Origin: an uncultured delta proteobacterium
Lineage (GTDB): Bacteria > Desulfobacterota > Binatia > UBA9968
Direction: 5' to 3'
DNA length: 64,000 nucleotides
Assembly (NCBI GenBank): GCA_963727625.1
Contig: CAVSHR010000004.1
Location: 891,850 to 955,849, forward strand
Shown here: positions 9,401 to 22,382 of the stretch, piece by piece
Layout of the letters: each line of letters starts with the position of its first letter
Numbering within the stretch: the stretch's first letter is position 1
Notes under the pieces: generated by a model
Told to the model about the DNA's origin: nothing
The model's database searches: none
The model's input: the letters and a program-made list of their open reading frames with translations, nothing else
Made by a program: the position numbers and the translations under genes

Positions 9401-9488
9401 TCTCTCGCAAAGACGCCCAGTTAAGAGATCCGGAGAAACAACTCCTCCCATCTGCGAGCTTTGCGCCTTTGCGGGAGACAATCCGAGC
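9401..9488. repeat. Palindromic intergenic repeat, copy A (between the small and large subunit genes)
   Basis: The left arm TCTCTCGCAAAGACGC (9401..9416) pairs with GCGCCTTTGCGGGAGA (9463..9478). It shares the arms and the tail GAGACA-N-TCCGAGC with copy B at 11882..11968. Confidence 0.6.
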
Positions 9489-9511
9489 GACCACCAAAAC
9501 CTACAACAACC

Positions 9512-11797
9512 ATGGCTAAATCAGAAAACTACTCGGTTATCGGCAAGCGCGTTCAGCGCGTCGAAGGTTTCGACAAGGTGACCGGCGACTCGGAATACAT
9601 CGCCGACATCTACCTTCCCGGCATGCTCGTCGGTAAAGTCTTGCGCAGCCCCTATCCCCACGCACGCATTCGCCATATCGACACGACCAAAGCCGAGAAA
9701 CTTCCAGGAGTGCGCGCAGTCGTGACTGCCGAGGACACGATCAAAAAGCCCTGGGGGGCGTTCTTTGCCGACCAATATATTCTCTCCGTCGGGAAGACTC
9801 GTTATGTCGGCGAGGAAGTCGCCGCCGTCGCCGCCATCGACCCGGATATTGCCGAAGAAGCGATCGATCTCATCGAGGTCGATTGGGAGCCCCTCCCCGG
9901 CGTCTTCGACGCCGAAGAAGCGATGCAAGACGGCGCCCCCTTGGTGCACGACGACAAGCCAAACAACATTGCCATGCAAATGGATTTAGAGCGCGGCAAT
10001 GTCGCCGCGGCTTTCGCCGACTCCGATGTGATCGTCGAAGACACTTTCACCAGCATGCCCCAGTGGCACTGTTCCATCGAGACCATCGGCAGCGTCGCCG
10101 AATACGCGCCCAGCGGCAAGTACACCATTTACATGAACACCCAGACGCTGTTTAACGCGCGCTACCGCATCGCCGCGGCCTTGGGTGTACCCGAGACCGA
10201 CGTGCGGATCATTCAGAGCGCGGTCGGCGGCGGTTTCGGCGGCAAGTCCTGCGATGACAACAACGCTCTGGTCGCCGCAGTTTTGGCGAAAAAAGCGCGC
10301 AAGCCGGTCAAGCTGATCAATACTCGCGAAGAGGAATTTCTCGCCGGCTGCCGGCCGCGCGTCTTCATGAAGATCAACGTCAAGATCGGCTTTAAAAAAG
10401 ACGGCCATATCCGCGCCAAGGAATTGAAGGTCATCGCCGACAACGGCGCCTACTCGGCCAAAGCGCCGGCGATCACCGGCGTCGCGGCGATGCGCCACGA
10501 TACTTGCTATAAATATTCCGACGTCAAGATCGACGCCAAGTTGGTCTATACCAACAAAATCCCCACCGGCGCCTTTCGCGGCTTCGGTAATCCGTCGGCG
10601 GAGTGGGCGGTCGAGCAAGCCATCGACTTGGGCGCTCATGCGCTCGGAATCGACCCTATCGAGCTCGCCCGCATCAACGCCGCCGAGACCGGCTACGTGT
10701 CGCCCCATGGCAACCGCGTGACTAGCTGCGAGCTCAAGCAATGTCTCGACATGGCCGAGCAAATGATCGACTGGAAAGCTAAGCGCGCCAACAAGCAGCC
10801 GAATACCGGCCTCGGTTTGGCCTGCACCGTTCACGTCAGCGGCAAGCGCCATTTCGGCGATTACGACGGCAGTTCGGCTACGATCAAGATCAACGAGGAC
10901 GGCAAGGCGCTGATCTTGAGCGGCGAGGGAGAATGCGGCCAGGGCGCTCACACGGCCATGTGCCAAATCGCCGCCGAAGAGCTCGGCGTGCCGGTCGAAG
11001 ATGTGGAGATTTCCCGCGCCGACACCGATCTCACGACTTTTTGCTTGGGAGCGTTCGCGAGCCGGCTGACCTATGTCAGCGGCAACGCGGTCAAAAACGC
11101 CGCGGCTAACGTCAAGCAACAACTGTTCGAACAAGCCGCAGAGATGCTGGAGGCCAACGCCGCGGATCTCATCTCGCGCGACGGCAGGATCTTCGTCAAA
11201 GGCGCCGAAGGCAAATCGGTCACCGTCGGCGACGCGGCGCGGGCGCGACTCTTCCGTCACAACGGCGCGCCCATCGTCGGCTCGGGGAGCTTCGATGCCG
11301 ATTCGGTCCTGCCCGACAGCGTGCGCTTCGGCAACGAGTCCGGCGCCTACAACTACGGCGTGCAGGCCGCTCAGGTGCGCGTCGATCGCGAAACCGGCCA
11401 GGTAAAACTTTTGAGCTACGTCATTGCCTCGGATTGCGGCACGGTGATCTACCCGATCGGCGCTGAAGGCCAGGTCGAAGGCGGGCTGGCTCAAGGCATC
11501 GGCTACGCGCTCACCGAGGGACTGCAAATCGATGAAGGCCGGCCGCTCAATCCGAATTTTTCCGACTATCGCATTCCCTCCATGCGCGACATGCCGCCGC
11601 TGCAGCATGCCTTCGCCGATTCCTACGAGCCGACGGGCCCTTTCGGCGCCAAGGGATTGGGCGAGCTCAACATGGACCCCACGGCCGCCGTGATCAACAA
11701 CGCGATCTTCGATGCCGTCGGCGTGCGCGTCAAAACCTTGCCGATCACGCCGGAAAAAATATTGCGGGCTCTGAAAGAAAAGCAGGGCGAAAAATAA
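9512..11797 (+). CDS. Molybdenum hydroxylase large (molybdopterin-binding) subunit, cluster 1
   Basis: This is a 761-aa protein from MAKSENYSVIGKRVQRVEGFDKVTG. It has xanthine dehydrogenase-family motifs (GGGFGGK, GAFRGFG), and its start follows the repeat. Confidence 0.9.
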   Translation: MAKSENYSVIGKRVQRVEGFDKVTGDSEYIADIYLPGMLVGKVLRSPYPHARIRHIDTTKAEKLPGVRAVVTAEDTIKKPWGAFFADQYILSVGKTRYVGEEVAAVAAIDPDIAEEAIDLIEVDWEPLPGVFDAEEAMQDGAPLVHDDKPNNIAMQMDLERGNVAAAFADSDVIVEDTFTSMPQWHCSIETIGSVAEYAPSGKYTIYMNTQTLFNARYRIAAALGVPETDVRIIQSAVGGGFGGKSCDDNNALVAAVLAKKARKPVKLINTREEEFLAGCRPRVFMKINVKIGFKKDGHIRAKELKVIADNGAYSAKAPAITGVAAMRHDTCYKYSDVKIDAKLVYTNKIPTGAFRGFGNPSAEWAVEQAIDLGAHALGIDPIELARINAAETGYVSPHGNRVTSCELKQCLDMAEQMIDWKAKRANKQPNTGLGLACTVHVSGKRHFGDYDGSSATIKINEDGKALILSGEGECGQGAHTAMCQIAAEELGVPVEDVEISRADTDLTTFCLGAFASRLTYVSGNAVKNAAANVKQQLFEQAAEMLEANAADLISRDGRIFVKGAEGKSVTVGDAARARLFRHNGAPIVGSGSFDADSVLPDSVRFGNESGAYNYGVQAAQVRVDRETGQVKLLSYVIASDCGTVIYPIGAEGQVEGGLAQGIGYALTEGLQIDEGRPLNPNFSDYRIPSMRDMPPLQHAFADSYEPTGPFGAKGLGELNMDPTAAVINNAIFDAVGVRVKTLPITPEKILRALKEKQGEK

Positions 11798-11881
11798 TCG
11801 TCACACCGAAATGGAATCGCACAAAACTCGTTTCACCACGAAGATCCCAATGCAGCGAAATCCTAACCCTATCTCGGAGTA

Positions 11882-11968
11882 TTTCTCGCAAAGACGCAAA
11901 GTCGCCAAGTTCGGAAATCCGTTTTATTTCTTTGCGGCCTTTGCGTCTTCGCGAGAGACATTCCGAGC
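11882..11968. repeat. Palindromic intergenic repeat, copy B (between the large and medium subunit genes)
   Basis: TCTCGCAAAGACGCAAAG (11884..11901) pairs with CTTTGCGTCTTCGCGAGA (11939..11956) with one mismatch. The tail GAGACATTCCGAGC matches copy A. Confidence 0.6.
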
Positions 11969-12040
11969 ACTTTGTGCGGCTGCGCCGTGCTGGGATCTTC
12001 GTGGTGTCTCCCTCGTTGCGGCCCGCTCGCGAGAACGCGC

Positions 12041-12901
12041 ATGATTAGATTCGACTACCAGGAACCGACGACGCTTAAAAAAGCCTTCGCCTTGATGGAA
12101 AAACACGGCGACGACGGGCGCGTCATCGCCGGCGGCACTTCGTTGCTCATCATGATGCGCCAGCGGTTGCTCATGCCCAAGGTGGTGATCAGTCTGGGCC
12201 GGATTCCCAAGTTGGACCGTATCACCTACAAGGCCAAGGACGGCCTGCGTATCGGCGCCGGCGCGCGCCACCGCGACATCGAGCTCTCGCCCGCCGTGCG
12301 CAAGCATTATCCCCTGCTCCACGAGACTTTTCGCAAAGTCGCCCAGCCGCGCATTCGTAACATGGGCACGGTCGGCGGCAACCTTGCCTGCGGCGATCCG
12401 CTGACCGATCCGGGCGCAAGCCTGATCGCCCTCGACGCCGAAGTGACGCTAACCAGCAGCAAGGGAAAACGAACGTTGCCGCTGGACGAATTTTTCATCG
12501 ATTACTACCAAACCGCGTTGGAACCGGGCGAATTGTTAACCGAGATCCGCGTCCCGCCGTCCCAGCGCCCGGGCTGGTCGCATATCAAATTCACGCCGCG
12601 CAGCGTCGAAGACTTTGCCACGGTGGGCGTCGCGATCACTTTGAAGGCCGACAACGGCACCTGCGACGATATTCGCATCGGTCTCAACTCGGTTTCCTCG
12701 ACCATCGTCCATGCTCGAAAAGCGGAGGACGTTTTGCGCGGCAAACCGATAAGCGACGCTGCGCTCCGGGAAATGGGCGAAGTCGCCGCCAGCGAATGCG
12801 ATCCGACCGACGACAACCGCGGCTCCGCCGAGTACAAGCGCGAGATGGTCAAAGTCTTGGTGCGCCGCGCCGCACAAGAAGCGCTCCAACGCGCACGTTG
12901 A
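12041..12901 (+). CDS. Molybdenum hydroxylase medium (FAD-binding) subunit, cluster 1
   Basis: The protein MIRFDYQEPTTLKKAFALMEKHGDDGRVIAGGTSLL... has the CoxM/XdhB FAD-binding (PCMH-type) pattern. The start was trimmed from 11972. Confidence 0.9.
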   Translation: MIRFDYQEPTTLKKAFALMEKHGDDGRVIAGGTSLLIMMRQRLLMPKVVISLGRIPKLDRITYKAKDGLRIGAGARHRDIELSPAVRKHYPLLHETFRKVAQPRIRNMGTVGGNLACGDPLTDPGASLIALDAEVTLTSSKGKRTLPLDEFFIDYYQTALEPGELLTEIRVPPSQRPGWSHIKFTPRSVEDFATVGVAITLKADNGTCDDIRIGLNSVSSTIVHARKAEDVLRGKPISDAALREMGEVAASECDPTDDNRGSAEYKREMVKVLVRRAAQEALQRAR

Positions 12902-14543: not shown

Positions 14544-15704
14544 CTAGGGATGGAGCTTGGAGAGGGTGGCACTAAGAGCAGCTACGATGAGCTGGAATAA
14601 TTCTTTGTATTCCTCTGGATCGGGTCGATAAGGCCATGCCAGGGAATGACCGGTGGTGTTCCGAATTCCCCAGGTCGCGCGAACCGCTCTCTGGGTGAAG
14701 TCAGGCGTAGTATCGTTCTTGATCTCTGCGATGACATCGTCGAACGTCTGCGCACCAAACCCTTGGGGAGCCGCGGTGAACCCAAATGCCGAATAAATAC
14801 TGCCATCATTCAGGAAGTTATTGATAGTAGCCTTGCGGTTGACACTTTTAATCACCCCGCCAGCCGGCGAAGTTTTGAGAAGAGTTTCAAAAAGGAGCGC
14901 TCCCTTGAAGAGATGAAGAAAAAACGGTTCGCCGGTGCTCGTCGGAGTTCCTGCAAGCGAAAGTTCCTTTGCCCTCGATGAAAATTCTAATAGAAAAGTA
15001 AAAACTCCGGTAACAGCTGATCTCTTGATGGAGCCGGGCGTCATCGCTGGCTTGACCAATTTATCTCGAAGTTCGTCGAGAGAGAGACTAATTCCGCTGG
15101 AGCTAGTCACCTCCCTCATAACATCCTCGAAGATTTTGCGAGTAATAGTCACTAGCTCCTTGGCAGCCTGATTATTAGTCCTGTCGTCAAATAGTACGAA
15201 TTTTCCCGATGGAAGCTCGAACCATCGGTCTTTGTGAAGCCGCAAGTCTTCTTCCAATGCAGCATCCATATAAAACAAGGCCTTCTCGAAATCCCGCGCC
15301 AAATACGAGGCCATCCCCAAGAAATAAAAAGGAGTTCCTTTGTGAATGTTCTGATATTTTGCCGGGTCATCTGCGGCCATTATTCCAAGCACATGTTCCC
15401 ATGCGTTGATCTGGGCCACCGGCGAGTACCATAGTCTGCGTATGATCCCGGTTGAAGAAAATAAATCATCCGCGACCCCAGCGGCCATAAGAGCGTCAGC
15501 AGGGTCAATTTGTAGTTTTCTAAAATCTTCTATAAGCAACTTCTTATAGTCGTTGGTATAGAGATATACTTCGATCACCGACTTCCCCGCGGATTGATTA
15601 AGAAAATCCACTGACAGGAAAGAATTCGCCTGAGGCGATAACACTGGATCCGGTCCGCCAGGGCCATCGGTTTCTGTTAGGCTCGTGTTTGTTTCCCCGA
15701 CCAT
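14544..15704 (-). CDS. Hypothetical 386-aa protein with a C-terminal HEPN-like R-x4-H motif
   Basis: The ORF is clean with an SD (AAGGGG) 7 nt upstream. The motif RNTTGH is encoded at 14646..14663 within ...AVRATWGIRNTTGHSLAWPYRPDPEEYKELFQLIVAALSATL. I recognised no other family. Confidence 0.6.
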   Translation of the reverse strand: MVGETNTSLTETDGPGGPDPVLSPQANSFLSVDFLNQSAGKSVIEVYLYTNDYKKLLIEDFRKLQIDPADALMAAGVADDLFSSTGIIRRLWYSPVAQINAWEHVLGIMAADDPAKYQNIHKGTPFYFLGMASYLARDFEKALFYMDAALEEDLRLHKDRWFELPSGKFVLFDDRTNNQAAKELVTITRKIFEDVMREVTSSSGISLSLDELRDKLVKPAMTPGSIKRSAVTGVFTFLLEFSSRAKELSLAGTPTSTGEPFFLHLFKGALLFETLLKTSPAGGVIKSVNRKATINNFLNDGSIYSAFGFTAAPQGFGAQTFDDVIAEIKNDTTPDFTQRAVRATWGIRNTTGHSLAWPYRPDPEEYKELFQLIVAALSATLSKLHP

Positions 15705-15735
15705 TTGCTACCCCTTGAGAGTTTACGGCCTTTAT

Positions 15736-16008
15736 TCAAATTACTTTAAACGCGGCCAAAAGACCGATTATTCCCACTGTTACTAGAACCAATCCAAATC
15801 GCTTGAACGTTCGTAAGATACCGTGCAATCTTCGCTCCGAATTGGGCCAGGATTCATCGGGCACCACTCTATACAAAGCCGCCGTTACGATGTCCGCCCA
15901 TTGCGCGTTCCACCGCTTTTTTGCGGTCACCGCATATAAGTAGTTCGCGTACGCGCCAATTACGATCATTACAATGCTTCCGATCAGAAGCGACACATCT
16001 TCTACCAA
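15736..16008 (-). CDS. Hypothetical 90-aa two-TM membrane miniprotein
   Basis: Hydrophobic helices sit at both ends (LLIGSIVMIVIGAYANYLYAV and FGLVLVTVGIIGLLAAF). It has a TTG start with GGAG upstream and lies 31 bp upstream of the 386-aa ORF on the same strand. Confidence 0.4.
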   Translation of the reverse strand: MVEDVSLLIGSIVMIVIGAYANYLYAVTAKKRWNAQWADIVTAALYRVVPDESWPNSERRLHGILRTFKRFGLVLVTVGIIGLLAAFKVI

Positions 16009-16336
16009 TGCTCGGTCTCCGCAAAAACTCCGTAAAAGTCGGTTCTATGGCGTGCCCCTGGTCGTCGTTCGCGGCACGAATTACTATAGACCTTCAGCGT
16101 GATCGCGCAATCCGAATGCCCCTCGCTGTTATTCCGCTGTTTATCAGGCAATGCCGCAATAGGGCCGAAAGCGATGAGGTGGTGTTTTTGATCGCGTTTT
16201 TCTGCAGATTCCTTAGTCGCGCTTCTAATTTCCGCCAAGGTGCAAAAATGGGATGGTCAAGTCTTTCATCTTGCTCTTTCAAAATGGTCGCTGAATATTC
16301 TGAAGTCTGCCGTGTTGAACGGCACGGAGGTAAACT

Positions 16337-16612
16337 ATGAATTTTCGTACACACAAGGGAAAACTATTGAAGAACCCAAAAGTAAAGAAGGAGTACGAAA
16401 AACTCGGTCCGGAGTTCCACCTCGCGCAAAGCTTGATCAAAGCCCGTATGAAGAAAGGCTGGACACAAGCAGAACTGGCCCGCCGAGTCGGCATGCAACA
16501 ACCAAATATCGCGCGACTCGAAGGCGGAAACTACGACCGGGTTTCATTACCTACTTTAAAAAAAGTCGCCCGCGCCCTGGGAGCAGAGATCGAGATCAAG
16601 CTCTCCGCGTAA
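16337..16612 (+). CDS. XRE-family helix-turn-helix transcriptional regulator or antitoxin-like protein
   Basis: The HTH reads GWTQAELARRVGMQQPNIARLEGG. A strong SD (GGAGG) lies 7 nt upstream. It is divergent from the 15736..16008 / 14544..15704 pair. Confidence 0.8.
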   Translation: MNFRTHKGKLLKNPKVKKEYEKLGPEFHLAQSLIKARMKKGWTQAELARRVGMQQPNIARLEGGNYDRVSLPTLKKVARALGAEIEIKLSA

Positions 16613-16875
16613 ATAAGGCTGTTGCTCTCAAAACAACAGTTGGGGCGTCATTTCGCGTCTGAGGCCATGGACGCCTATTTCCTAGTTCCGGTCCTCCGAG
16701 GTGAAGCGTTGATGGCGCGAGGTATTGAGAGTTCGACGGCAGCGCAAATGTTGATCACGAGTCCGCGTTACCCGCCCAATCCTCACTTTAGAGCCTCCAG
16801 AACGCGGCACGCCCTATGATGCTACCTACCGAAACGACGCTAGTCATAAGGATGACCTGAAGATCACGGCCGACT

Positions 16876-17310
16876 TCACCCGGCCCAAATAATATCGAGT
16901 TCCAGAAGTAACCCAGCGTCTCGTTGCCGGCCATCTCCCGTTACGAATGGGATGCGGAAACCCGCGGCGGCTTGAAATGCCATCAATGACGCGACATGGA
17001 TCGCATCCAAGGCTGTTACCGGCACGGTCCCTTGAACAATCTCTTCAGCCCGGTTCAAAACGGTTTCGCCCACCTCGACCAACTCCCAGCGGGTGCGATC
17101 ACTCCGAACCCTGCTCAGCGTCGCAACGAAGGCCTCTTCGGACAACTCTCTATCGCGTCTTCGTCTCCCCAAGGCGGACATGATTTCAACGGGCGTAATC
17201 GCCGAGGAGAGCAAGTCGTGCTGGCGCAACAAAGACACAACCCGAGCAGAGCCCGGCTCTCTCACATATCGTTTGATCAGAGCGCTGGTATCGAAATAGG
17301 CGAATTTCAC
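16876..17310 (-). CDS. vapC: PIN-domain ribonuclease toxin VapC
   Basis: The protein MKFAYFDTSALIKRY... has the PIN acidic residues (D7 and later D..D). It overlaps the upstream antitoxin gene by 4 nt. Confidence 0.85.
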   Translation of the reverse strand: MKFAYFDTSALIKRYVREPGSARVVSLLRQHDLLSSAITPVEIMSALGRRRRDRELSEEAFVATLSRVRSDRTRWELVEVGETVLNRAEEIVQGTVPVTALDAIHVASLMAFQAAAGFRIPFVTGDGRQRDAGLLLELDIIWAG

Positions 17311-17591
17311 CGCTCGTTGCGCTCCTCGCTGATGGTCTGCGACAGGGGTTTCCCCTTAACGCGAATTGCCTTCCAGGTCGGCTTTCCCATGGGTCCTCGC
17401 TGCCGAGCCGGACGCAGCAAGCCCTCCGACTCCAGACGGCGAATGATCGTTTCTTGATCTTCCTTGGTTTCAAGCGGCTTGATGACCGCGATAGGCTTCC
17501 CCCGCTCGGTCAATACGACTTCCTTGCCCTGCTTCACCGCTTTCATCGCTTTAGAAAAACTCTGGTTAGCCTCTCTCAATCCCATGCGCAT
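17307..17591 (-). CDS. vapB: Phd/YefM-type antitoxin (VapB partner)
   Basis: The N-terminus ANQSFSKAMKAVKQGKEVVLTERGKPIAVIKP is typical of Phd/YefM antitoxins. A GAGGA SD is present, and the gene is translationally coupled to vapC. Confidence 0.8.
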   Translation of the reverse strand: MRMGLREANQSFSKAMKAVKQGKEVVLTERGKPIAVIKPLETKEDQETIIRRLESEGLLRPARQRGPMGKPTWKAIRVKGKPLSQTISEERNER

Positions 17592-17623: not shown

Positions 17624-17753
17624 CTAGTGTACGCTTCCTCTCTCGGGACGTCAAATTCTGTATGTGGACTCCCACTCCAGAACTTGATGGGAGACTAACT
17701 GGCGTGTGTTCTTGACCACGAACTCCGCATTACCGGCCCAATCATCGCTTTAG

Positions 17754-18389
17754 ATCAGCAAGAAGATCCTGTGCTCGATTCCCACTGACAAACGGATCAA
17801 CTATGGTCGAGTCCCACTTTCTGGCGTTCTTGTTTGGGATCGAGGCCTGGGGCCAGGACTCGATCCCTTGCGAGACGTGAGACTCATTGCGTTCGGCCGG
17901 ATCGGTCTGGTCTCGCAGTCGCTCTTCACCGGTGTGGTCGATGCGGCGCTTTTGGCGGCGGCCGATACTGTCGAAGCGAAGAAATATGGCATGCGCATGC
18001 TCATGGATATGGCTACGGAGCGCATCCCCTGCCCGTTCACTTCGGTGGTGACGATGAAAACGGTGCTGGACAAATCGCCCGTGCTGCTGGACCGATTTCT
18101 CAGAGGCATCCTGCACGGGATCAAACTTGCGCTGACCAATCCGGATATGGCAAAGAAGGCCTTGAGCAGACATATGCGGCTCGGTGAAGGCGAGACTCTC
18201 GATGAAGTTTATCAACGGGCCGTGTTGGCCTACGAGCGCGTGCCCATGGTCCCCAAAGAGGCAATCGAGACCGTGGTGAAGGTTTCGCCCATCCCTTCGA
18301 ATCGAAACCCGTTCGGCGTGTTGGACATGGCTGTGCTCGAGCGCATCGATAACGAAGGTTTTATTCGCTCGCTTTACGCGGCAAAATAG
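17754..18389 (+). pseudogene. NMT1/THI5-like ABC substrate-binding protein, 5'-truncated remnant (C-terminal about 210 codons)
   Basis: The frame is open from the TAG at 17751. GLDPLRDVRLIAFG...DAALL...NEGFIRSLYAAK aligns with the C-terminal halves of the intact paralogues at 48438, 57401 and 38532(-), which end SGFIKRLYKK, SGFVSRLYRQK and SGFIDKVYQ. There is no signal peptide or N-terminal lobe. Confidence 0.6.
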
Positions 18390-19489: not shown

Positions 19490-19963
19490 ATGAAACAAAC
19501 GATCCATGTCACGGTTAACGGCCGGCTCTACGAAGAAGACGTCGAGCCCCGTCTACTCTTGGCCCATTTTCTCCGCGAGAAAATCGGTCTCACCGGCACT
19601 CACATCGGCTGCGTCGTCGGCGAGTGCGGCGCCTGCTCGGTGCTGCTCGACGGTAAAGTGGTGAAATCCTGCCTCCATTTCGCCGTGCAGGCGGACGGCC
19701 GGGAAGTCACCACCATCGAAGGGCTCGCGAAAAACGGCGAGCTCAATCCGGTGCAGGAAGCGTTTGTGAAGAACTATGCATTTCAGTGCGGCTATTGCAC
19801 GCCGGGCATGGTGATGACGAGCTACGCTCTTTTGCAAACCAATCCCAACCCGTCGGAAGCGGAGATCCGCAAGGCGCTCGCCGGCAATCTTTGTATGTGC
19901 ACCGGCTATGTGCAGATCGTCGAAGCGGTCAAAGAAGCGGCAAAGGGAATGAAAAATGGCTAA
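19490..19963 (+). CDS. Molybdenum hydroxylase small [2Fe-2S] subunit, cluster 2
   Basis: It has CVVGECGACSV and CGYCTPG...CMCTGY motifs and is 157 aa long. Confidence 0.9.
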   Translation: MKQTIHVTVNGRLYEEDVEPRLLLAHFLREKIGLTGTHIGCVVGECGACSVLLDGKVVKSCLHFAVQADGREVTTIEGLAKNGELNPVQEAFVKNYAFQCGYCTPGMVMTSYALLQTNPNPSEAEIRKALAGNLCMCTGYVQIVEAVKEAAKGMKNG

Positions 19964-22382
19964 GTTTGTCGGCAATCGTTCACGAAGCAAAGAAGGTCCG
20001 CGACATGTTACGGGCAGAGGGTTATTCACCGACGATTTCACCCTGCCCGGCATGCTCCAGGCGATGATCCTGCGCAGCCCCCATGCTCACGCTAAAATTT
20101 TGTCCGTCGATCCGGCCGAGGCGCTCAAGAATCCCAACGTCTTTGCCACGATCACGCCGGATGATGTCAAGAAAATGACCAAACCCTTCAAACCCGGCCG
20201 TTACGCCGCGGGGTTGAAACGTCCCATCGATGAATACGCCGGAGCGGTGGACAAAGTCCGCTATGTCGGCGAGCCGCTCGGCGCGGTGGCGGCCAAAGAT
20301 CGGGGCACGGCGGAAGACGCTCTGGAATTGATCCAAGTCGAGTATGAGCCCCTCCGCGCCAATGTCGATGTCCATGAAGCGATCAAGCCGTCGTCCGCGG
20401 TGCTCTTCGATGAGCTCGGCACCAATCTCGCGTGGACCGGTTCGCTGCAATACGGCGACATCGATGCAGCGTTCCAATCTGCCGACCGAATCGTCAAAGA
20501 GAATTTAAAAATTCACCGTTACAGCTCGACGCCGCTCGAACCTTTCGTGGTCATCGCGTCCTACGACGCGGCGAGCAAGCGCTTGACCGTATGGGTCACG
20601 GCGCAAGTGCCGGAAGTGATCTACGACGGACTGCGCGAAACCCTCGGCCTGCAGGATGTCCGCGTGATCATTCCGGATGTCGGCGGCGGCTTCGGCCAGA
20701 AGATTCATCTGATTCGCAAATACGTCATCCTGATTTCGCTGCTGGCGATGAAAACCGGCCGGCCGGTGAAATGGATCGAAGACCGCACCGAGCATATGAT
20801 GGCCGGCGGCCACGCTTGCAACCAAGACGTCGAAGCCCAAGCCGCGGTGAAAAACGACGGCACCGTGCTCGGTCTCAAGTTCAAAGAATACGACGACGTC
20901 GGCGGCTCGATCAGCACCCTGACGATCCACTTCACCAACAAGCTCAATAATCTGTCGAACACTTACAAAACACCGGCCATATCCATGGAAGGCCACGCGG
21001 TGGTGACCAACAAGTGCCCGGTGGTTCCCAACCGCGGCATCGGCAAGCCCGGCATGTGCTTTATCTGGGAACGGATGATGGACCGGGTCGCCCAGGCGCT
21101 TAACTTGAGCCCCATCGAAGTGCGGCGCAAAAATTTGATCCAGGCCGACCAGATGCCCTACACCACGATCAGCGGCAACGTTTACGACAGCGGCGATTAT
21201 CCCGGCCTGCTGAAAACGCTCCTGGAAAAAATCGACTACGACAAGCTCCGCGACGATCAGAAAAAAGCCCGCGCGGAAGGCAAGCTCATGGGCATCGGCG
21301 TCGTCATCGGTGTCGAGCCCGGCGGACGCAACGCCGCGCGCGACATGGCGATCTTTCCGGAAATGAAAGAGCCGCCCGGCTCCGGCGGCATCAACGGCGC
21401 AAAAATCAAACTCGAGAAGAACGGCACGCTCTCGCTCCATCTGGGCTCGCCCAACTGCGGCCAGGCCCATGAGACCACCACCGCGCAGGTCGCCGCCGAG
21501 ATTCTCGGCTCGACGCCGGACAGAATCAGCACCAGCATCCCCTTCGATAGCGATCTGTCTTCGTGGGGCGTGGCGGCGGCCAACAGCGGCAATAATTTTC
21601 ATCTCTACGACATCGGCGCGATTCACGGCGCGGCCCATAAGCTGCGCGATAAAATCCTCAAGCTCGCGGCCTACAATCTCAAAGTCGAGCCGTCGGCGTT
21701 ATCCATCGAAGACAGCGTAGTGAAAGTGCCCGGCGCGCCGGCCAAACAAATCACCTTCGCCGAGCTCGGCCGGATCGCCTACAACAACCAGCATCTGATT
21801 CCAGACGATATGGAGGCCGGACTGGAGGCGACCCATTACTACACGTTTCCCCACGCCAAGCCCAATATCGTGCCCGGCGCCGACCGCAGGGTGCGCGCCC
21901 AGTTCTCCTTTTCCGCCGGTGCCCACGCGGCCATCGTGGAAGTGGACAAGAATACCGGCTCGGTGCATGTGCTGCGCTATCTGATCGTCGGCGACAACGG
22001 CGTGGTGATCAATCCGGACGTGGTCAACGGGCAGGTCTACGGCTCCGCCGCGCACGGTATCGCTGTCGCGCTCGGCGAGGGGTTCATGTACAGCCCGGAA
22101 GGGCAGCCGTTGACGATCACTTATCTCGACTACGGCAAATGTTCGACAGCCGAGACACCGCGGGTCGAGGTCATCCATCAGCCCTCCCCCTCGCCGTTTA
22201 CGGCGCTGGGGCAGAAGGCCGCCGGCGAAGGCGCGGCGATCCCCTCGCCCGCCGCCATCGCCAGCGCGGTGGAAGACGCGCTCCAACCGTTCGGCGTGAA
22301 AGTTTGCGATCTTCCGATCACACCGGAATCGGTGTGGCGCTTGATCAACCACAATCCGGAAAAAGAGCGGAGGACCTTCTAG
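19956..22382 (+). CDS. Molybdenum hydroxylase large subunit, cluster 2
   Basis: The 808-aa ORF has a GGGFGQK motif and the family architecture. It overlaps the small-subunit gene by 8 nt. Confidence 0.9.
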   Translation: MAKFVGNRSRSKEGPRHVTGRGLFTDDFTLPGMLQAMILRSPHAHAKILSVDPAEALKNPNVFATITPDDVKKMTKPFKPGRYAAGLKRPIDEYAGAVDKVRYVGEPLGAVAAKDRGTAEDALELIQVEYEPLRANVDVHEAIKPSSAVLFDELGTNLAWTGSLQYGDIDAAFQSADRIVKENLKIHRYSSTPLEPFVVIASYDAASKRLTVWVTAQVPEVIYDGLRETLGLQDVRVIIPDVGGGFGQKIHLIRKYVILISLLAMKTGRPVKWIEDRTEHMMAGGHACNQDVEAQAAVKNDGTVLGLKFKEYDDVGGSISTLTIHFTNKLNNLSNTYKTPAISMEGHAVVTNKCPVVPNRGIGKPGMCFIWERMMDRVAQALNLSPIEVRRKNLIQADQMPYTTISGNVYDSGDYPGLLKTLLEKIDYDKLRDDQKKARAEGKLMGIGVVIGVEPGGRNAARDMAIFPEMKEPPGSGGINGAKIKLEKNGTLSLHLGSPNCGQAHETTTAQVAAEILGSTPDRISTSIPFDSDLSSWGVAAANSGNNFHLYDIGAIHGAAHKLRDKILKLAAYNLKVEPSALSIEDSVVKVPGAPAKQITFAELGRIAYNNQHLIPDDMEAGLEATHYYTFPHAKPNIVPGADRRVRAQFSFSAGAHAAIVEVDKNTGSVHVLRYLIVGDNGVVINPDVVNGQVYGSAAHGIAVALGEGFMYSPEGQPLTITYLDYGKCSTAETPRVEVIHQPSPSPFTALGQKAAGEGAAIPSPAAIASAVEDALQPFGVKVCDLPITPESVWRLINHNPEKERRTF

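Follow-up and report, generated by a model that had tools for sequence, protein, structure and literature searches.

What does a protein of 386 amino acids (aa) do when it resembles nothing that has been named? The question is raised by a gene in a 64,000-nucleotide stretch of DNA, hereafter the window, from contig CAVSHR010000004.1 of an uncultured Binatia bacterium (Desulfobacterota). An initial annotation, made from the letters alone, noticed in its product an RNTTGH motif recalling HEPN RNases, and proposed that it forms an abortive-infection or toxin module, membrane-coupled and under XRE control, with a small two-transmembrane protein and a divergent XRE regulator, next to a vapBC toxin-antitoxin pair. 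The unit that recurs across genomes is the 386-aa gene itself: judged from homologue searches, it belongs to a real, widespread and unannotated protein family. We favour, at a probability of roughly 55%, a self-contained latent HEPN-type RNase acting in abortive infection.

No model in Pfam, NCBIfam, PADLOC or PHROGs matches the protein, apart from a single sub-threshold tetratricopeptide-repeat (TPR) hairpin (residues 127-153), and the first impression of a protein that fits no family is borne out against these four collections. A word-indexed search of 5.8 billion proteins returned 151 homologues, and an exhaustive phmmer search gave 535 clusters (50% identity), of which 317 reach E<=1e-10. 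Every homologue that carries a name is labelled 'hypothetical protein', and a literature search found no published equivalent of the family. Fifty-two members scanned one by one against Pfam and PADLOC gave sub-threshold TPR matches, one match to PbeC (E=0.0025), one to DUF4145 and nothing else. The one-genome-per-species GTDB set (185,579 genomes) contains 92 family loci, of which 80 were kept; only a small minority of these species-level genomes have a hit, generally about one each. The bacterial phyla concerned are Acidobacteriota, Chloroflexota, Nitrospirota, Patescibacteria, Desulfobacterota, Bacteroidota and Planctomycetota; cultured strains are few (Bradyrhizobium sp. 141, Paenibacillus nicotianae, Desulfosarcina cetonica) and several archaea carry the family too. 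IMG/VR adds two loci only. The patchy spread over many phyla and the low guanine-plus-cytosine (GC) content in the window fit horizontal spread.

Is the motif more than an accident of composition? In one sequence it would be weak evidence, because shuffles of the 386-aa protein yield R-x4-6-H in 55% of cases and RN...H in 1.1%. What lifts RNTTGH (codons CGGAACACCACCGGTCAT, sequence context WGIRNTTGHSLAW) beyond chance is its invariance among homologues. Conservation was counted in 308 sequences aligned to the family hidden Markov model (HMM), a set that includes a divergent subfamily with archaeal members: R348 and H353 are present in 305 of 305 aligned sequences and N349 in 303 of 305, the spacing from R to H is always x4 (R-N-x3-H), and position 273 is E or D in 305 of 305. 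Poor conservation of R348 and H353, the weak point that the initial annotation had named for itself, was not encountered, and the motif is functionally constrained. A second cluster, in the N-terminal half, is as strictly conserved: D153 is found in 308/308, G123 in 307/308, K122 in 305/308 and H121 in 292/308, while D147 is found in 270/308, with H in its place in 25. When 52 sequences, down to 27% identity, are aligned, the positions that never vary are H121, K122, G123, Y127, D147, D153, L239, R348, N349 and H353. The divergent subfamily falls within loci L053-L083 (e.g. L053, L055, L056, L065, L067-L069, L076, L081), and its archaea are ANME-1, Halobacteria, Thermoplasmatota, Bathyarchaeia, Nitrosarchaeum and Nanoarchaeota; LMHQALEED replaces FYMDAALxED and YGxRNxxAH replaces WGxRNTTGH, all putative catalytic residues being kept.

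The position of the motif in the predicted fold is that of a HEPN active site. AlphaFold2 (AF2), given the family alignment, returns an all-helical full-length model (predicted local distance difference test, pLDDT, 89.4; predicted TM-score, pTM, 0.86), and the C-terminal 165 residues modelled alone reach pLDDT 93.8 and pTM 0.90. DSSP assignments on the two models delimit four helices in this C-terminal domain: 1 (228-250), 2 (259-278), 3 (336-351) and 4 (363-384). R348 and N349 close helix 3, H353 lies in the loop ahead of helix 4, and E273 is in helix 2; between helices 2 and 3 is an insert of about 50 residues (280-330), made of short helices and poorly conserved. HEPN domains have a conserved acidic residue in helix 2, a polar residue directly after the Arg that has a catalytic role, and often an insertion separating helices 2 and 3 (Anantharaman et al., 2013, PMC3710099); the family has all of these in addition to R-x4-6-H. 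At the level of secondary structure, the models thus place R-N-x3-H where the HEPN active site is expected, at the point where helix 3 ends and the loop to helix 4 begins. Foldseek searches of the PDB with the C-terminal domain alone rank HEPN proteins 1-5, 12, 14 and 17, although not at significant scores; the structures matched are the HepT toxins 7ae6 and 7bxo, and 2q00, 4nqf and 8xeh. The full-length model has no match at E<=0.001 in the PDB or BFVD, with TPR proteins or TPR noise at the top of the lists and, far down, Csm6 (E ~2.6) and a phage 'HEPN domain-containing protein' (E=3.9). We regard the C-terminal domain as HEPN-like, because an R, a polar residue, x3 and an H together with a helix-2 acid, all in the right positions, are hard to explain otherwise. 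The HEPN identity advanced initially therefore stands for motif, position and secondary-structure layout; it lacks a significant sequence or structure match to any known HEPN, and formal membership is unproven.

The N-terminal domain is a different matter. On the window protein, TPR_2 recognises one hairpin (E=0.008, 16.7 bits vs a cutoff of 27), and it gives sub-threshold matches in 30 of the 52 members, in agreement with the early description of the mid-region as TPR-like; no tandem TPR array was detected, only the one hairpin. The domain has no recognisable relatives and bears a signature, HKGTP[FY]Y[FW] followed by [FY]xDxAxxED. The idea that it is a degenerate HEPN domain born of internal duplication was rejected, since hhalign of the N- against the C-terminal domain found nothing. 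Members with N-terminal extensions have no informative domains there, except P0067 (537 aa, from a Logan contig), which carries an N-terminal fusion to a four-transmembrane Ion_trans_2 (K+-channel-like) domain and is the one genuinely membrane-tethered member among 249 retrieved family proteins. Because no separate antitoxin is conserved, the N-terminal domain is likely a sensor or an auto-inhibitor.

In what company is the family gene found? Open reading frames (ORFs) were called in all loci, the family gene was located by HMM, and the ORFs within 3 kb of it were clustered (79 loci). The only recurring clusters are methyltransferase and specificity subunits of restriction-modification (R-M) systems, an N6-adenine methyltransferase cluster being near the family gene in 11 of the 79 loci. 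HsdS lies directly upstream in four (L023, L029, L042, L043), at most 16 bp from the family start and with a 4-bp overlap in L029. L023 is complete: its order is hsdM-hsdS-family gene-hsdR, the family gene starts 2 bp past hsdS and overlaps hsdR by 4 bp, and the HsdR matches that of EcoR124I (E=6e-40). This slot between hsdS and hsdR is the one that prrC occupies in the prr locus, and links to R-M systems are known for at least 16 HEPN clades (PMC3710099). Elsewhere the family gene directly follows a 1630-aa Type ISP enzyme (L007) or is near Type IIG (Eco57I/MmeI-like) enzymes (L024, L067, L068), abutting one in L068. Other neighbours are SNF2-Mrr (ZorD-like), an Hhe-like helicase-nuclease, prokaryotic Argonaute (pAgo), a type III methyltransferase, type IV restriction enzymes, MADS components and several PADLOC candidate systems. 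In L087, the order is PLD, a 1460-aa NACHT protein, a 293-aa gene, the family gene and an integrase; L085 holds HepT/MNT, PIN, OLD-TOPRIM and PLD, L095 a transposase, a D5 primase and an integrase, and L096 Mrr, Bro-N, MNT-HEPN and MazE-PIN. The MNT genes of L085 and L096 pair with HepT/HEPN genes of their own. Family genes are thus found in defence, toxin-antitoxin and mobile islands, as had been anticipated: judged from raw neighbour counts, their surroundings are those of defence genes, R-M systems or mobile elements, and the gene can also stand between hsdS and hsdR. A conserved partner gene is absent: in a Pfam survey of 136 immediate neighbours no family occurs more than three times, which argues for a self-contained, self-regulated protein.

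In L043 (1344-6176), hsdM, hsdS and the family gene are followed, 14 bp downstream, by a gene for an 864-aa AAA_13/SMC-type ATPase with weak similarity to PARIS AriA. In an Acidobacteriota relative at 44% identity (L004, the same as L003), the gene 23 bp downstream (L003 7160-8083) encodes a 307-aa protein with HGCSGGPV, which by eye resembles the motif of trypsin-like serine proteases; precomputed Pfam annotation of the contig assigns the protein no family.

How would such a protein work? In the reading that we favour, R-N-x3-H and the Glu/Asp of helix 2 would form a metal-independent RNase site. Two such motifs brought together in a homodimer are probably required, by analogy with other single-HEPN proteins. 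Its N-terminal domain would hold the enzyme latent, a role that an associated restriction enzyme may take in some genomes, until an infection cue (a phage protein, say, or the loss of activity of an adjacent R-M system) activates it; it would then cleave an essential cellular or phage RNA (tRNA, rRNA or mRNA) and abort the infection. Where it is part of an R-M operon, it may act as a second line behind restriction, a role modelled on PrrC and on the many HEPN clades linked to R-M systems (PMC3710099). The HEPN fold, the RNase activity, dimerisation, sensing by the N-terminal domain and the abortive outcome are all inferred.

Several results weigh against this reading. The HEPN matches of the C-terminal domain in Foldseek have a best E of 0.66, TM-scores of 0.25-0.41 and root-mean-square deviations of 8-10 Å. 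Sequence-profile searches of the PDB, with the full family or with the C-terminal domain only, found nothing relevant, and hhalign of the C-terminal profile against HepT gives a probability of 2.6%, a weak negative given that the comparator, built from homologues of the L085 HepT, is shallow (at least 65% identity). None of the HEPN models of Pfam, NCBIfam and PADLOC matched the window protein, and among the 52 members scanned singly the only HEPN-family match is the DUF4145 one (E=0.06), in a single protein. The family has no tblastn match in curated plasmids (PLSDB) or phages (INPHARED), and many loci have ordinary neighbours: transporters, DinB, PriA, SOR/SNZ. Finally, because the N-terminal H-K-G...D...D cluster is as invariant as R-N-x3-H, something besides the latter site is also under strict selection, and the true active site could be this cluster.

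A more specific proposal, which we think less likely than not, is that of a single-protein 'guard' effector: the N-terminal domain, with its H-K-G...D...D cluster and TPR-like hairpin, would sense a phage trigger or a disabled restriction enzyme and release the divergent HEPN RNase. This would be a PrrC-like function without an ATPase, widespread in uncultivated bacteria and archaea that defence catalogues under-sample; in a more radical variant, the N-terminal cluster would be a second, new catalytic site.

A further alternative, which we consider unlikely, makes H121-K122-G...D147...D153 the key site, with an activity other than RNA cleavage, and leaves to R-N-x3-H a role in substrate or nucleic-acid binding or in inter-domain regulation. 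Besides the near-complete conservation of D153, G123 and K122, it draws on the lack of any significant sequence or structural link between the family and HEPN, and on a full-length fold whose lack of significant PDB or BFVD matches leaves room for a new activity. However, the residues around the N-terminal cluster are compatible with a TPR hairpin, and folds of this kind mostly serve to bind ligands rather than to catalyse. The C-terminal residues, helix-2 acid included, would also be left hard to account for without a HEPN-like site, and HEPN toxins are the top-ranked structural neighbours of that domain.

The operons suggest another possibility: a helical adaptor without catalytic activity, modulating or stabilising R-M complexes or acting in anti-restriction or immunity, and occasionally left solitary where the operon has decayed. 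The tight position between hsdS and hsdR or right after Type ISP enzymes in several loci would suit such an accessory, as would a TPR-like protein-interaction hairpin in the N-terminal domain. Yet an R-M methyltransferase is nearby in only about 11 of the 79 loci, most members, the window's included, have no R-M partner, and the invariant charged and polar residues, of a kind usual in catalysis, speak against a pure scaffold; we hold this explanation to be improbable.

What then of the cassette proposed initially, in which the miniprotein would be an anchor, sensor or antitoxin of the 386-aa protein and the XRE protein would control the pair? The two genes are on the same strand, 31 bp apart, with a Shine-Dalgarno-like AAGGGG ahead of the ATG of the 386-aa gene; they are probably co-transcribed in the window. 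The miniprotein (TTG start, a hydrophobic segment at either end) is genuine and conserved: it has two homologues, the only ones in 5.8 billion proteins, at 83% and 67% identity. The XRE protein matches HTH_3 (E=3.6e-12) and HTH_37 (E=6.2e-12) in Pfam and resembles CapH-type defence regulators (PADLOC capH, E=1.1e-8). A GC content of 0.48-0.50 common to miniprotein, 386-aa gene, spacer and XRE gene is consistent with joint acquisition, and because it is shared, the three genes may have been acquired together in the window and may interact in this organism. The transmembrane fusion of P0067 and small transmembrane ORFs upstream in L018 and L019 could also be cited in favour of membrane coupling.

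Co-occurrence speaks otherwise. A small upstream ORF with at least two transmembrane segments exists in three of 81 loci (the window, L018, L019), and the three are non-homologous; with the fusion confined to one protein in 249, membrane coupling is not a property of the family. The closest relatives, L002, L085 and L004 (66%, 56% and 44% identity), have different neighbours and neither miniprotein nor XRE gene, and P0252, the one miniprotein homologue whose context can be read, lies in a neighbourhood of DUF2950, MBL-fold and M48 peptidase genes that lacks a family member. By phmmer, the window's XRE, miniprotein, PIN, Phd and 301-aa proteins have no homologue within 5 kb of any other member, so that control by XRE does not hold for the family either. 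The best matches of the XRE protein are HigA/HipB-type antitoxins (HTH_37, TIGR03070), and HTH_37-type genes are common islet genes, since a bona fide Gp49-HTH_37 pair, itself unrelated, is found near another member (L097). To judge by these sequence comparisons, miniprotein and XRE gene are local neighbours and not parts of a conserved system; as a family-level model the three-gene module is largely refuted, and we give it very little credence.

Least probable of all is a housekeeping or niche metabolic helical protein whose defence neighbours are coincidental in variable islands: the many ordinary immediate neighbours and the position of the window islet between metabolic operons would fit it, but the extremely patchy phyletic distribution, the frequent integrase, transposase, toxin-antitoxin and R-M neighbours and the atypical GC of the window locus do not.

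Rechecked in the sequence, the ORFs, the RNTTGH codons, the 31-bp gap, the XRE gene and the toxin-antitoxin pair are all as first described; the coordinates are collected in Table 1.

Table 1. Features of the 386-aa gene and its surroundings (positions in the window).
Feature	Position	Strand	Basis
386-aa gene, sole conserved unit; unannotated two-domain all-alpha family	14544..15704	-	ORF, homologue searches, AF2
C-terminal HEPN-like domain, residues 222-386	14547..15041	-	AF2 of domain alone, Foldseek
R348-N-T-T-G-H353, putative catalytic motif	14646..14663	-	codons verified, conservation
E273, conserved acid of helix 2 (HLFKGxLLFE motif)	14886..14888	-	alignment, AF2
N-terminal helical domain, residues ~85-221; proposed sensor/auto-inhibitory module	15042..15452	-	TPR_2 matches
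H121-K-G-T-P-F-Y-F128, N-domain signature	15321..15344	-	alignment
90-aa two-transmembrane miniprotein gene	15736..16008	-	ORF; hydrophobic segments
XRE/HTH_37 protein, HigA/HipB-antitoxin-like, divergent from the pair	16337..16612	+	Pfam, NCBIfam, PADLOC
PIN toxin + Phd/YefM antitoxin module, independent neighbour	16876..17591	-	Pfam
PIN toxin gene	16876..17310	-	PF01850 E=1.6e-8
Phd/YefM-type antitoxin gene	17307..17591	-	PF02604 E=4.3e-9

The GC dip noticed at the outset is real (0.48-0.52 at 14-17 kb vs 0.56-0.61 around) but narrower than implied. It is a block of about 2.1 kb made of the 386-aa gene (0.489), the miniprotein gene (0.480), the 328-bp spacer between miniprotein start and XRE gene (16009-16336; 0.50) and the XRE gene (0.50), whereas the PIN and Phd genes, at 0.57, are host-like and lie outside it; the window mean is 0.56 and the flanking genes of CO-dehydrogenase/xanthine-dehydrogenase (CODH/XDH) type are at about 0.60. 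Scans of the spacer for promoters, terminators and repeats found nothing exceeding shuffled expectation. What had been called vapBC is indeed a toxin-antitoxin pair, composed of a PIN toxin with a Phd/YefM-type antitoxin. It is bracketed by 41-nt imperfect direct repeats (16762-16802 and 17724-17764, 80% identical, 962 bp apart), which suggests a separately inserted cassette.

The islet as a whole is flanked by CODH/XDH-family gene sets: on the left (9461-12901) a molybdenum-binding large subunit and an FAD subunit, on the right (19490-22382) a 2Fe-2S and a large subunit. These assignments come from translated ORFs; Pfam supports that of the FAD subunit alone. A 173-aa ORF (17868-18389, plus strand) matches positions 121-216 of the 216-position NMT1/THI5 profile only (E=6.8e-7) and looks like a 5'-truncated resident gene at the right edge of the inserted islet. 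On the plus strand, antisense to the miniprotein gene, a 139-aa ORF (15921-16340) ends in a 4-bp overlap (ATGA) with the XRE start codon. Such an overlap is the typical layout of toxin-first HigB-HigA pairs. The idea that the XRE gene is half of a degraded HigB-HigA pair found no support in Pfam: the overlapping ORF has no match there, and its composition is R/S-rich. This ORF may be a spurious one or the remnant of a toxin gene.

If the favoured reading is true, some 535 uncatalogued clusters (at 50% identity) would join the HEPN-type abortive-infection repertoire. They belong mainly to uncultivated bacterial lineages (Acidobacteriota, Chloroflexota, Nitrospirota, Patescibacteria, Desulfobacterota) and also to some archaea, where Pfam, PADLOC and comparable collections are blind. 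The placements between hsdS and hsdR and beside Type ISP and IIG enzymes would then be further natural pairings, in the style of PrrC, of an R-M system with a back-up RNase, and a regulatory domain that is not an ATPase would open the question of how such enzymes stay silent. The family offers a good lead towards a new group of defence genes in lineages that are under-sampled, and merits a profile model to replace the 'hypothetical protein' labels. The locus also teaches caution: locus-specific neighbours, such as the transmembrane miniprotein and the XRE gene here, should not be taken for system components until their co-occurrence has been checked.

How does the family compare with systems already known? 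HepT/MntA (type II/VII toxin-antitoxin) supplies its best, non-significant structural neighbours (7ae6, 7bxo, 8xeh) and shares with it a small helical RNase domain with R-x4-H; however, the 386-aa family has no adjacent MNT nucleotidyltransferase, its protein is three times larger, with an extra N-terminal domain, and the hhalign probability is the 2.6% given above. LA2681-like and C6orf70/DUF4209-like HEPN proteins resemble it in combining helical TPR-type repeats with HEPN and in occurring in bacteria and archaea; C6orf70-like proteins are reported from R-M-related operons, and TPR-associated HEPN families are listed in Table 1 of the same survey (PMC3710099). The 386-aa family has a single detectable TPR-like hairpin, and no Pfam model of a HEPN family matched the window protein at E<=1, so that it appears distinct from these groups.

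The HEPN RNases linked to R-M and abortive infection (AbiU2, AbiJ, DUF4145, ApeA, Ymh; Anantharaman et al., 2013, PMC3710099) have in common with it the helix-2 acid, the insert between helices 2 and 3, and stand-alone genes in or beside R-M operons and defence islands. The family differs in having no detectable similarity to the Pfam and PADLOC HEPN models and in its strictly conserved N-terminal domain (HKGTP[FY]Y...D...ED). With PrrC/RloC it shares, in L023 and partly in L029, L042 and L043, the prrC slot (hsdM-hsdS-X-hsdR), as well as an R-x4-H-type motif near the C-terminus and the proposed condition of a latent RNase behind R-M. PrrC is R-M-linked, whereas most members of the 386-aa family, the window's included, are not; and where PrrC and RloC have an N-terminal ABC/Rad50-like ATPase, the family has neither ATPase nor P-loop but a TPR-like helical domain. 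The ABC-type ATPase gene beside the family gene in L043 recalls the combination of ATPase and HEPN that is fused in PrrC/RloC. Effectors of HEPN type that stand alone in defence islands and in R-M operons are thus already known; what is new is the 386-aa family and its conserved N-terminal module.

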